Origin: a phage
Length of the DNA stretch: 64,000 nt
NCBI GenBank assembly: GCA_012628545.1
Contig: GCA_012628545.1_3035.1
Strand: one strand, 5' to 3'
Under the pieces are notes generated by a model that was given only the letters and a program-made list of their open reading frames with translations, searched no databases and had not been told where the DNA came from. The translations under genes and the position numbers were made by a program. This document shows, piece after piece, positions 43,069 through 55,507 of this stretch (positions are counted from its first letter, which is position 1; each line of letters opens with the position of its first letter).

Positions 43069-43494
43069 TTATTCCTTAAAGTGTGCTTTCAGCATTTGAT
43101 ACAAGGACCATGCCTGTTCATTATTTTCAATAGTAACTTTCATGACAGGAAATTCTGTGAAATCTTCTATTTGTTCTTGCTCTTTCTCTTCCTGCTCTTG
43201 CTCTTCAGCTGCCTGATATGGATTTTCCACTTCATCAAAGAACCCAGCTTCGTTAGTAGAAAGCCAAATAAAGTTTTCGTCAAGGATATCACCATGTGTT
43301 GCATATCCAACTGTGCCAGTAGATGTCACAATTTTAGTAGGACGACCAAGATGGTCAACATCTAAAATTTTAAAAGGATGCATACCTAAACGGCGTGCAT
43401 AGATTCCGTTATCAGTATGATCTTTAATAAAATTTTCTTGAGCTTGTTTATTTTTAAATTGATACCATTTATTAACTTCAAATCTAATAGCCAT
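43069..43494 (-). CDS. goF: hypothetical acidic protein, possibly GoF
   Basis: 141-aa ORF with Glu/Gln-rich tract; assignment from length and synteny only. Confidence 0.4.
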
Positions 43495-43709
43495 TAATAA
43501 ATTTCCTTCCAGTAAGTTGTGCCATCTTCAGTAATTTCACGAAATACACCGTAAATTGGTTGTTTATCACCAACCTTTTCATACACATAAACCGAAGTCA
43601 AGTGAGTAAACTTAACGGTATGTTCCTTTTGAACCACTACCAAATCTGGATCAAATAATACATCTTCAAATTCGTCATTAGTGCAATTCTGAACAATTTT
43701 GCGTTTCAT
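43494..43709 (-). CDS. cef: hypothetical protein, possibly Cef
   Basis: 71-aa ORF; assignment from length and synteny only. Confidence 0.4.
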
Positions 43710-44088: not shown

Positions 44089-44580
44089 TTATGCATAGCG
44101 AGCTTTGCTGTAGTGTTTAATCCAACTTTCAGGAATGACTTTGTATGTTCCTAAAAATACCGCGTTGTACAGCTTAACACCGTCTTCTACCCATTGATCA
44201 GTAATGTATGCACACATAGCGCGAGTACGGTTAACAACACCTTCCTCACCTTCAGTAAATTCAAACTCATAAGGAGCAACGAACTTGATAGCTTGACCGA
44301 GTTTCCACTTAAAGTCTACACCTACATGCGAAGTATCAATCGTTTCAATTCCTTTAGCGGGAACAGCTTTCAAAAACGCAGGCTCAAGAAATTTCCATCG
44401 AACATAACCAAACTGAGGTTTAGACATTCCATCTTTAGGAATGATACGCACTTTTACTTCAGAATCTTCATCTTTAACACCATGTTTAAGCTGAATGCTT
44501 ACGACTTCAACCAATTTTCCTGCTGCCTTAGAACGGGATTTATCAGATACACGAGCAATTTCACCGATATTAATATTCAT
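44089..44580 (-). CDS. motB: putative MotB
   Basis: 163-aa ORF; assignment from length and synteny only. Confidence 0.5.
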   Translation of the reverse strand: MNINIGEIARVSDKSRSKAAGKLVEVVSIQLKHGVKDEDSEVKVRIIPKDGMSKPQFGYVRWKFLEPAFLKAVPAKGIETIDTSHVGVDFKWKLGQAIKFVAPYEFEFTEGEEGVVNRTRAMCAYITDQWVEDGVKLYNAVFLGTYKVIPESWIKHYSKARYA

Positions 44581-44653
44581 AATTATCTCTCACTTGTTAA
44601 AAAGATTTTATACTCCACAGGACCATTATACTCTGGTCCCAAGAGTTTGTAAA

Positions 44654-45091
44654 CTAGCTTACACGAACATTAATCACTGCGCTACGAGGAACTACAGAGT
44701 ATTCTCCAGCATGAACTACGTTCAGAAGTTCAACACCATCTTCAATCCACTGATCAGTCACCCATCCACCCACAGGATTCGCGAATGGACGACGAATATA
44801 AACTGCCTTACACAGCAGATCAGTTGGATCTTCAGGTTTTTCAATTTCTGTCAATAGACTAAAATCTTTTTCATAAATAATAAGCGGTGATACCATTCCA
44901 TAATAGTTTCTAATTTCAATATACATCATACCGATAAGAATTCCGCTATTAACACTAATAACAGTAAAAGGATATCCGCCAGTTAAACCAAGAAGTTCAC
45001 AAAACTTATTATGAGCTGTATTAGACAGTACCGAAAAATTCTTAATTTCATCAAATTTTTTCAATTGATAAACAGCATTATTTTTAATCAT
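44654..45091 (-). CDS. hypothetical protein, C-terminal module paralogous to upstream ORF
   Basis: 145-aa ORF; shares motif TDQW(I/V)EDGV(E/K)L.N.V..G.Y.V(V/I)P with ORF 44089..44580. Confidence 0.5.
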   Translation of the reverse strand: MIKNNAVYQLKKFDEIKNFSVLSNTAHNKFCELLGLTGGYPFTVISVNSGILIGMMYIEIRNYYGMVSPLIIYEKDFSLLTEIEKPEDPTDLLCKAVYIRRPFANPVGGWVTDQWIEDGVELLNVVHAGEYSVVPRSAVINVRVS

Positions 45092-45101
45092 AATTTTCTC
45101 T

Positions 45102-45653
45102 TTAATCTAAGGTAATAAAGCCTTTTAATTCGGCATGGGATTTACGGAACATTACTTGGTGCCCGCCAATGATAACTTGGTCATCTGGCACTTCATAAAT
45201 CGCAATGTACATTCCACGTTCTTTTAAGTCTTCACGCTCTTCTCGAGTGAACCATCTCATCATATCATATTCACTAGCGAAAGCAAAATGATATAATGCA
45301 ATAAACCACAATGGAATATAATTTTCAATTCGTGAATAATCTTTATTCCATTTAGTTTTAATAACATCATTAGCATTTTCAACTAATAACTTATCATCGT
45401 GTGGAATAGGAATACTTTCATGGCTTTCATAATTATCGCTATGATGATGAAATGACGATGAATTAATACCACAAAATTTTAGCCAAGTTCGAGTTTTCAT
45501 AGAATCAAATCCACGATAAGGAGTTGATTGAACGCATAACTCTTGCCTAATTTTGACTATACCACTATCATCATTTAATGCGCTAAACGATGATTCAACA
45601 CGATAAATTTTCATTTTATTATCCTCAGTAGCTATGGTGTTATAATACCACAA
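45102..45653 (-). CDS. hypothetical protein
   Basis: 183-aa ORF. Confidence 0.5.
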   Translation of the reverse strand: MWYYNTIATEDNKMKIYRVESSFSALNDDSGIVKIRQELCVQSTPYRGFDSMKTRTWLKFCGINSSSFHHHSDNYESHESIPIPHDDKLLVENANDVIKTKWNKDYSRIENYIPLWFIALYHFAFASEYDMMRWFTREEREDLKERGMYIAIYEVPDDQVIIGGHQVMFRKSHAELKGFITLD

Positions 45654-45677: not shown

Positions 45678-46361
45678 TTATCGTTTTGTTGGAAGAGACA
45701 GAGGATCGCACTCTTCCTCTGACGGAGCATCTTCAAGACCCATAGCGTATCGCAAAGCATACTTCATCATCAGGATGTCTTTCGCACAGTCATGAATAGA
45801 ATCATGTGCAACGAATCCATCTAAAGTTCCCTTTGGAAGAGGACATGTGGTCATATCACGAACAAGTAGAAGTGCTTCAATTCTGGTACGAATATCACGC
45901 TGATTCCAGAATTTACACGGTTCTAACTTAAATGTGTCAAGCTCATTCTCAGATACACCATTAAGGCGTTGAATATCACGAATGAGATCGACTAAAATTG
46001 GAAAATCAAACGACATTCCACGGCACCAGCCTTGAGATTTCCAAGGATCGATATTATGCGCATTGATGTAATCATTAAATTTTACAATACCATCGATAGT
46101 GCTTACATCTTCATCTGATGGTGCAATATTTTTTCGAGCTTCAGGGGATTGATTCTTCCACCATTCGATAGTGCTTTTAGTAAAAAGACGATGTCCTTTT
46201 TGGCTTTTTAAATCAAATTTGATTTTAATGCCACGTGAAACTAATTCATCAAATGTTTCAACGACTTCTGGATTAGGGTCAAAAGCAATTACAGCCAAAT
46301 CAATAACAGCTGCTTTTTCACCACTTCCCATTGTTTCAAAATCTATAATAAAATCAAACAT
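45678..46361 (-). CDS. dexA: exonuclease A (DnaQ-like 3'-5' exonuclease)
   Basis: 227-aa ORF; T4 DexA length and synteny. Confidence 0.85.
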   Translation of the reverse strand: MFDFIIDFETMGSGEKAAVIDLAVIAFDPNPEVVETFDELVSRGIKIKFDLKSQKGHRLFTKSTIEWWKNQSPEARKNIAPSDEDVSTIDGIVKFNDYINAHNIDPWKSQGWCRGMSFDFPILVDLIRDIQRLNGVSENELDTFKLEPCKFWNQRDIRTRIEALLLVRDMTTCPLPKGTLDGFVAHDSIHDCAKDILMMKYALRYAMGLEDAPSEEECDPLSLPTKR

Positions 46362-51699: not shown

Positions 51700-51899
51700 G
51701 ATTTATCACCATAGATGTCTCTCATCAATTTAAGCGCTGAGCGTTCTAATTTCTTTTCTTTCTCAGCACTAATCATTGATTTCATCCATTCTTCTGACTC
51801 GTTCTGTATTTCTTTATTTGCCTGTTCAACCCAACCATCATCAATATACATTGAGTTTGGTCTATTGAACCATTCAAGCATTTTCTTCAGAACTTTCAT
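51696..51899 (-). CDS. hypothetical protein
   Basis: 67-aa ORF. Confidence 0.45.
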
Positions 51900-54482: not shown

Positions 54483-55507
54483 ATCTTAGCATATTTAGAT
54501 AACCGCATTTTAGCCATTAACCCCTGGGCAATATTATTTTTCATATATTCCATAATTTGTTCAGGGGTTGCACCTTCCTTTCTAATCATATCATTGACGT
54601 CTTTTGATTTCCAGGGAGATTTATCCCAAAACATAACCCTTTCTCCTGCATCAACTAATTTAGTCATTCGTTTGATAGTGTCAGGGTGACGAGGTTCATT
54701 ATCTAAGACCCACACTCGTCTATCTTTAAATGGAACAACTTCTAGGTCTAATTGACCGCCCGTAATAGCTATACCATTTTCAATAAAAAGTGAATCTATA
54801 GGTCCTTCTAGAACATATACATCGCCATCTTTAACTCGTTCGACTCCATATATTTTTGTTGCCTCAGGATAAGCTTTAATGGTGATATATTTTTGAGGAG
54901 CATCTTTCTTTAATGCACGTCCTTGAAAAGACTCAGCTTTTCCATTAGCATTATAAATTGGAATAACAAGACGAGGCTCAGAAATTTCCTTTTTGTATGT
55001 TCCCGGTGCTATGCTATTAACTAATTTAGGCCATTCAGTTGTAAACCAAAGATATTTCCATTTATCCTTTGGAATACAACGAGCTTTTACATATTTTATA
55101 ATTGCATGGTCTTCCGCCAGTTTATCTAATCTAACACATGACGGAAGAGATTTAATTATTTTCTTCTCAGGTTGTTTAGGAAGTTCTTTAGGTTTTTCTA
55201 CTGGACGACTTTTACCTCTTTCTTTTCTTATTTCAAAGATATACTCACGATATAAATCAGGTTCAAACTCCTTTAAATATATTCCGATTGGTGCATGATA
55301 GTTACAGTTATAACAATGAATATTTCCTTCATTATTATCACCATAATACCATCCACGAGCTTTATTCTGATCGGTTTTTGAATCTCCACAAACAGGACAT
55401 CTAAACCGTAATTTAAAAGTTGAACTATTATTTACTTGTGTGAATTTAGGTAAATGAGCTAATGCACGGTATGCAAACTCATTATCAATCCAAGGTATTG
55501 ATGACAT
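54479..55507 (-). CDS. 61: DNA primase
   Basis: 342-aa ORF with N-terminal zinc-ribbon CxxC...CxxC and TOPRIM-like region; T4 gp61 length. Confidence 0.9.
   Translation of the reverse strand: MSSIPWIDNEFAYRALAHLPKFTQVNNSSTFKLRFRCPVCGDSKTDQNKARGWYYGDNNEGNIHCYNCNYHAPIGIYLKEFEPDLYREYIFEIRKERGKSRPVEKPKELPKQPEKKIIKSLPSCVRLDKLAEDHAIIKYVKARCIPKDKWKYLWFTTEWPKLVNSIAPGTYKKEISEPRLVIPIYNANGKAESFQGRALKKDAPQKYITIKAYPEATKIYGVERVKDGDVYVLEGPIDSLFIENGIAITGGQLDLEVVPFKDRRVWVLDNEPRHPDTIKRMTKLVDAGERVMFWDKSPWKSKDVNDMIRKEGATPEQIMEYMKNNIAQGLMAKMRLSKYAKI

Follow-up and report, generated by a model that had tools for sequence, protein, structure and literature searches.

Adjacent genes motB and motB.1 of a T4-like phage share a complete C-terminal domain and are very likely tandem paralogues

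The neighboring genes motB and motB.1 of a T4-like phage are very likely tandem paralogues that arose by duplication and have one complete C-terminal domain in common. We analyzed a 64,000-nucleotide stretch of phage DNA (contig GCA_012628545.1_3035.1 of assembly GCA_012628545.1; hereafter, the window), following up an earlier reading made from the letters alone (the sequence-only reading), which had noticed a similar block at the ends of two adjacent ORFs. The shared C-terminal domain and a proposed duplication were published by Patterson-West et al. in 2021 (Viruses 13:84, section 3.2; PMC7827196) for the same genes, the same shared region, and with the same duplication inference; the finding is therefore correct but already known. 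The codon-level evidence, the outgroup polarity, and a frameshift in the T4 reference are additions of the present analysis and are not reported in the accessible part of that paper. For work on T4 early genes, the useful by-products are the fold and charge of the domain, the constraint on the module in MotB.1, and the reference frameshift.

The window belongs to a T4-like phage (Tequatrovirus). The 2.9 kb around motB and motB.1 matches 586 phage records, nearly all of them Tequatrovirus, with 90-98% identity, and the phage is RB3/FelixPlatter-like, with a MotB.1 length of 145 aa. The gene order goF-cef-motB-motB.1-motB.2-dexA is that of T4, and the genes are arranged as follows.

43069-43494, minus strand: goF (ORF list and synteny)
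43494-43709, minus strand: cef (gene order)
between cef and motB, minus strand: 93-aa ORF (gene order)
44089-44580, minus strand: motB, 163 aa, stop codon counted in (ORF list, Pfam PF17613, PHROG 1671)
44654-45091, minus strand: motB.1 orthologue, 145 aa, stop codon counted in (ORF list, synteny, PHROG 2333)
45102-45653, minus strand: motB.2 (gene order)
45678-46361, minus strand: dexA (gene order)

Both ORFs and the C-terminal sequences quoted for them in the sequence-only reading were found as described, each on the minus strand, and its naming of the first as a putative MotB proved right, given a full-length Pfam match and synteny. The 163-aa protein matches PF17613 (motB, "Modifier of transcription") over residues 1-163 with E = 1.1e-96 and 321.5 bits (gathering score 25), and PHROG 1671 with E = 2e-76. 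It has the full-length motB architecture, comprising a KOW-like N-terminal domain with the VS..SRSKAAG motif, a linker, and a C-terminal barrel. The full-length PF17613 architecture is absent from the 145-aa protein, whose N-terminus bears no similarity to that of MotB. Sequence and position between motB and motB.2/dexA both identify this protein as the MotB.1 orthologue: phages FelixPlatter and TH09 encode proteins with 100% identity to it, and it is ~78% identical to T4 MotB.1 and matches PHROG 2333 (MotB.1) with E = 9e-68.

The similarity between the two proteins is concentrated in an ungapped core block, which BLASTP aligned with 16/29 identities and 21/29 positives (E = 7e-10).

44125-44211, minus strand: core block in MotB, residues 124-152, YITDQWVEDGVKLYNAVFLGTYKVIPES (BLASTP, Smith-Waterman, tblastn)
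44681-44767, minus strand: core block in MotB.1, residues 109-137, WVTDQWIEDGVELLNVVHAGEYSVVPRS (BLASTP, Smith-Waterman; tblastn 44764-44681)

The sequence-only reading had staked its claim on significance against shuffled controls, and this significance held. The Smith-Waterman score (BLOSUM62) of MotB against MotB.1 was 98, compared with a mean of 28 (sd 4.6, maximum 60) over 5000 residue shuffles of either protein; none of the 5000 reached the observed score (z ~15, Gumbel P ~1e-9). Upstream of the core block, the two proteins scored 20 against a shuffle mean of 24, indicating no sequence similarity there. PF17613 also recognized MotB.1, with 32.7 bits, in excess of the 25-bit gathering score, and only over residues 104-139, corresponding to profile positions 118-153. 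This coverage indicates that MotB is a full member of the family and that MotB.1 shares only its C-terminal part.

When alignments of 38 MotB-type and 29 MotB.1-type proteins were compared by hhalign, the similarity extended over 52 columns with a probability of 99.2% (E = 7e-20), and over 50 columns with a probability of 98.3% (E = 1.8e-14) after two chimeric sequences were dropped. The aligned ranges were residues 93-156 of MotB and 92-141 of MotB.1, and PHROG 1671 (MotB-like) matched residues 79-141 of MotB.1 with E = 2.7e-15. Together, these ranges place the shared unit at ~50-64 residues rather than 30.

44113-44304, minus strand: shared C-terminal domain in MotB, residues 93-156 (hhalign, AF2)
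44669-44818, minus strand: shared C-terminal domain in MotB.1, residues 92-141 (hhalign, PHROG, AF2)

The proposed homologous block of about 30 residues is thus upheld as to homology by BLASTP, shuffles, and hhalign, and corrected as to length, as a whole domain is shared. The 10 aligned columns upstream of the core (LGQAIKFVAP versus LCKAVYIRRP) are weaker than the core itself, and an insertion of 12-14 residues (about 105-119) is specific to MotB, where AF2 models it as a long β1-β2 hairpin.

A chance or compositional match between the MotB and MotB.1 C-termini, without common ancestry, was a reading to consider, since the block first noticed was short, at ~30 residues. The shuffle and profile controls refute it: no shuffle of 5000 matched the observed score (z ~15), the BLASTP and Pfam matches are significant, with the latter above its gathering threshold, hhalign gives 98-99%, and the same module is kept in hundreds of phage records. 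We therefore regard chance as practically without credit. A third copy of the module was sought in six frames of all 64 kb, using a 2-sequence HMM and a 23-sequence family HMM, and only the two copies were recovered, the next best match having E ≥ 0.5. Weak tblastn matches at 54992-55048 (E = 0.41) and 51813-51848 (E = 0.8) received no support from the family HMM as a third copy and were discarded.

The regions preceding the shared domain are likewise modeled as domains by AF2.

44374-44580, minus strand: MotB N-terminal KOW/SH3-like barrel, residues 1-69 (AF2; HHpred in PMC7827196)
44840-45091, minus strand: MotB.1 N-terminal LSm-like/SH3-like domain, residues 1-84 (AF2; PMC12152347)

The MotB N-terminal domain is modeled with strands at residues 8-11, 23-30, 41-46, 56-61, and 65-67. 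Its KOW assignment comes from published HHpred searches (PMC7827196), and a distant relative, P0252, matches Pfam KOW. The MotB.1 N-terminal domain is modeled as a strand (7-10), a helix (24-37), and four further strands (42-49, 55-61, 67-73, and 80-83), an arrangement compatible with its published description as LSm-like, with a bent antiparallel sheet of five strands, in a Tevenvirinae family that GoF shares with MotB.1 and Frd.2 (Kim et al. 2025, PMC12152347). This family, of which the 145-aa protein is probably a member through its N-terminal half, is defined on the N-terminal domain only; GoF and Frd.2 do not have the shared C-terminal module, and motB and motB.1 carry its only copies in the window. 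The sequence-only reading had called the two N-terminal regions unrelated. This stands at the level of sequence (BLASTP, shuffles, and hhalign), with the refinement that both are predicted to be small β-barrels.

The AF2 models had a mean pLDDT of 84.6 for MotB.1 and 79.4 for MotB and were built from shallow alignments of 29 and 38 sequences (Neff ~2-3). Both show a low-confidence linker (disordered in MotB, with pLDDT <50 at residues 70-83) and, after it, the aligned region as a β-meander barrel of its own, with five strands and a short helical turn that separates strand 4 from strand 5. The strands are placed at residues 96-99, 107-117, 120-127, 130-135, and 139-141 in MotB.1, with the helical turn at 136-138, and at residues 97-110, 115-132, 135-142, 145-150, and 154-157 in MotB, with a short helical turn before the last. 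By DSSP, the C-terminal domains of both predicted models have five antiparallel strands in meander order and a 3-10 turn between strands 4 and 5, as in SH3-like domains. On these models, the shared domain is probably a phage-specific five-stranded small β-barrel of SH3/Tudor/KOW-like topology rather than an OB-fold. The resemblance to NusG/Spt5 KOW repeats and to the 53BP1 tandem Tudor is at the level of fold only, with 11-20% identity in structural alignments and no detectable sequence relationship, and a sequence-profile search of the PDB with the module gave no match even at E ≤ 10.

An OB-fold would be marked by a five-stranded barrel whose strands 3 and 4 are joined through a helix, together with OB-fold structural neighbors. 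The models of the C-terminal domain do not fit this description, with no helix at this position. The published account calls the C-terminal domain an OB-fold, where our models are SH3/Tudor-like: the HHpred alignment paired residues 69-149 of MotB with the OB domain of archaeal eIF5A (1BKB, 2EIF) (PMC7827196). eIF5A/EF-P, the HHpred neighbor in that work, likewise has two domains, an N-terminal KOW-like barrel followed by the OB domain. The tight DNA binding of MotB (PMC6070864) also speaks for a nucleic-acid-binding OB domain that directly contacts DNA or RNA in both proteins, and OB and SH3-like barrels, both being five-stranded, are easily confused. Considering the model topology, we think this reading unlikely. 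Each model contains two barrels, and the structural alignments do not specify which of the two they used; for this reason, the OB-fold assignment in print is questioned rather than overturned.

To date the divergence of the two copies, we used Nei-Gojobori-style counts over a 36-codon core, aligned with a pairwise aligner. Paralogues from the same genome had pS of 0.58-0.75 in the core, near saturation, and pN of ~0.36. They shared 16-19 of 31-36 residues and were no closer to each other than paralogues taken from different genomes. At the DNA level, the cores of motB and motB.1 are ~70% identical, with no long identical tract. The near-saturated pS, the DNA identity, and the lack of a within-genome excess indicate an old duplication and argue against recent gene conversion. 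The latter, or unequal recombination between adjacent genes that made or upheld the similarity, could be imagined, as motB and motB.1 are adjacent and co-oriented and the locus is recombination-prone (a 43-aa fusion in BYEP01 and the 29-aa RB69ORF012c; see below). On the same DNA identity, pS, and cross-genome comparison, we rejected recent gene conversion and consider it very improbable.

Comparison of MotB.1 orthologues showed a sharp difference between the two parts of the protein. In the core, pN was 0.05-0.17 (0.07-0.17 in the divergent set, with the closest relatives excluded) and pS was 0.31-0.69; in the rest of the protein, pN was 0.39-0.50 (0.24 for VR7/SNU) and pS was 0.55-0.79. Judged from these codon counts, purifying selection acts much more strongly on the module than on the N-terminal domain, and no other part of MotB.1 comes close to it in constraint. 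The contrast was weak among MotB orthologues, with a core pN of 0.19-0.31 for divergent T-even MotBs and 0.34-0.37 against the Klebsiella protein described below, compared with 0.26-0.50 upstream.

We then surveyed the distribution of the module. Among 1.84 billion cluster representatives, a module profile retrieved no more than 36 proteins at E ≤ 1e-3 and 23 at E ≤ 1e-10, and the credible matches were short phage proteins. We took the long multi-stretch matches (P0245, P0246, P0249, P0253, and others) to be spurious β-strand matches, the proteins being Ig-like, carboxypeptidase-regulatory-like, or tail-fibre repeat proteins. A 51-residue module query against a 5.8-billion-protein index returned 4 matches, as it was too short for the word index, and full-length queries were used instead. 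N-terminal classes were set by module type, with 70% coverage required, and the module occurred in four settings.

Behind a KOW-type N-terminal domain: MotB, 127-191 aa
Behind a single LSm-like N-terminal domain: MotB.1, 143-183 aa
In an N-terminally extended form: 244-250 aa
Behind two tandem LSm-like domains: 250-252 aa

These architectures match the four categories of the earlier publication (MotB-like proteins, two groups with other N-termini, and the 29-aa RB69 peptide; PMC7827196). The tandem LSm-like arrangement followed by the barrel is that of Gaprivervirus-type MotB.1 (P0044, P0046, P0047, P0051; VR7 motB.1, 251 aa, locus L005 868-1623). Three chimeras from Klebsiella-type phages (P0122, P0123, and P0231) join a KOW N-terminal domain to a MotB.1-type barrel that includes the upstream strand "DLLC.AV.I..PF". 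The number of module copies varies from one in a Klebsiella phage (L007) to three in Salmonella phage pSe_SNUABM_01 (L006 1177-2704), where a motB.1-type gene (181 aa) and two motB-type genes (158 and 139 aa) lie in a row.

Klebsiella phage Clarke_MM3 provides an outgroup. It has one motB-like gene in the syntenic slot, encoding a KOW domain and a MotB.1-type module, and no motB.1. Its core is identical to that of the window MotB.1 at 29/36 positions and to that of the window MotB at 18/36. The single gene with a MotB.1-type module makes this type look ancestral, so the copy in MotB.1 would be the conservative and probably the ancestral version, a polarity based on one outgroup locus and a few distant representatives. 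The most likely and simplest history that these sequences suggest is a duplication followed by replacement of an N-terminal domain. The ancestor would have had a single motB gene encoding a KOW domain, a linker, and the barrel, as in the Klebsiella-type relatives, and this gene would have been duplicated in the T-even lineage. One copy would have kept the conservative barrel and exchanged its N-terminal domain for an LSm-like domain of the GoF family, giving rise to MotB.1; the other would have kept the KOW domain while its barrel diverged and gained the hairpin insertion, giving rise to the T-even MotB. The same pattern would also result if recombination had exchanged the C-terminal domains. 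Duplication or domain shuffling, the explanation offered by the sequence-only reading, is supported by the occurrence of the module behind KOW, single LSm-like, extended, and tandem N-termini and by the single Klebsiella gene. The gene goF, which encodes the founder of the LSm-like N-domain family, lies ~1.2 kb from motB.1 in the same orientation, so a donor for the N-terminal domain swap would have been close at hand.

Several tiny annotated ORFs are remnants of the module: RB69ORF012c (29 aa), a 35-aa peptide labeled as E. coli, and the 43-aa BYEP01 protein (P0002-P0004). The last begins with MKIYRVESSFS, the start of MotB.2, and continues with the final 28 residues of the MotB.1 module. Such a fusion represents a deletion joining motB.2 to motB.1; the locus is prone to deletions. 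A short linear motif, (I/V)D.D(V/L)..(M/T)Y.(T/C)P, constitutes a second mobile element (P0029-P0036, P0234-P0243). In MotB.1 proteins of 164-169 aa and in distant MotB proteins of the KOW type, it separates the N-terminal domain from the barrel; in 180- and 250-aa MotB.1-type proteins, it is at the extreme N-terminus. The 145-aa MotB.1 of the window is without it, owing to an indel of 22 residues in comparison with its closest relatives, of 167 aa (SHBML-50-1 MotB.1, L001 2656-3159), and the MotB of the window may keep a degenerate version at residues 78-90, IETIDTSHVGVDF. Two phage tail-tip/tail-fibre-like proteins, P0247 (601 aa) and P0251 (862 aa), contain a ~45-residue repeat with SGYATEQWV(L/E)DK.YITGVDL. 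This repeat resembles the module core GYITDQWVEDGVKLYN and scores 29 bits against Pfam motB; the likeness is probably that of a convergent β-hairpin motif.

Full-length T4 MotB is a non-specific DNA binder; it spreads along DNA and, in the presence of DNA, is co-purified with H-NS/StpA (PMC6070864). The shared core has a pI of 4.2 in MotB.1 and 5.5 in MotB, compared with 9.6 for the MotB N-terminal domain and 5.4 for MotB.1 as a whole. This difference between the acidic conserved core and the basic N-terminal domain suggests that the KOW domain and basic flanks, not the acidic core TDQW(V/I)EDGV, would carry the non-specific DNA binding of MotB. The acidity of the core favors a role for the module in binding partners or as a scaffold over direct contact with the DNA backbone. 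An SH3/Tudor-like barrel with such a core would thus place MotB's likely DNA-binding surface on the KOW domain instead, although the acidic core may be compatible with nucleic-acid binding through other faces.

The description of the C-terminal block as a binding module in the sequence-only reading is plausible. As a tentative guess, the barrel may act as a docking module: a common docking or scaffold unit that would bring different nucleic-acid-handling N-terminal domains to the same partner. Candidates for this partner would be a host nucleoid-associated protein, a component of transcription or translation, or the barrels themselves, binding each other. It is also conceivable, but in our estimation improbable, that the barrel is a homo- or hetero-oligomerization domain through which MotB and MotB.1, along with any extra copies of MotB, assemble with each other or spread along DNA cooperatively, with no host factor involved. 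Small SH3/Sm-like barrels often oligomerize, which counts toward this reading, as do the invariant residues (T, D, Q, W, E, and N) that strands 2-3 carry on either face and the three module-bearing genes in tandem in some phages. The spreading of MotB along DNA likewise suggests protein-protein cooperativity (PMC6070864). However, AlphaFold3 gave no confident MotB.1 homomultimers, albeit on a truncated 119-aa form (PMC12152347). Returning to the docking module, a bolder and rather doubtful version of it would make the MotB.1-type barrel a dedicated, strongly constrained phage "address" domain that docks interchangeable N-terminal domains onto one host target during takeover. The effectors so addressed might, equally speculatively, be the KOW and the single or tandem LSm-like domains, with or without the ID.DV.S.Y linear motif.

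The T4 reference itself carries a defect in the shared domain. We compared NC_000866.4 6800-8500 (L008; motB.1 at locus 492-851) with window positions 44654-44770. The reference has one extra G in motB.1, reading ATTGGAAGA where a re-sequenced T4 clone and the window read ATTGAAGA. As a result, MotB.1 of NC_000866.4 stops within the module after 119 aa, with the ending ...TDQWIGRWR, and three of the shared domain's five strands are missing. The DNA 3' of the extra G is otherwise identical, and the rest of the module is still encoded in another frame. The intact 143-aa MotB.1 is found on 256 contigs, and the re-sequenced T4 clone is likewise intact. Kim et al. 2025 obtained motB.1 constructs from a gene-synthesis company, cited NC_000866.4 coordinates, and reported a 13.8-kDa monomer (PMC12152347). 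Based on these coordinates and this mass, their assays probably used the truncated MotB.1, which means that at least one functional study was probably affected by the frameshift. The published negative results for MotB.1, namely no RNA effect and no confident multimers (PMC12152347), were then obtained with the 119-aa form, and the real activity of MotB.1 may still be there to be assayed.

The intergenic region between the two genes (44581-44653, minus strand) contains one further feature.

44625-44653, minus strand: sigma-70-type promoter-like site, TTTACA, 17-nt spacer, TATAAT, 11/12 matches (consensus scan)

This site starts directly 3' of the motB.1 stop codon, upstream of motB, and its sequence is kept in T4. 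Only its match to the consensus identifies it, and the region as a whole had no more such matches than shuffles did. A short inverted repeat, GGACCA...TGGTCC, has the -10 hexamer of this site in its loop region.
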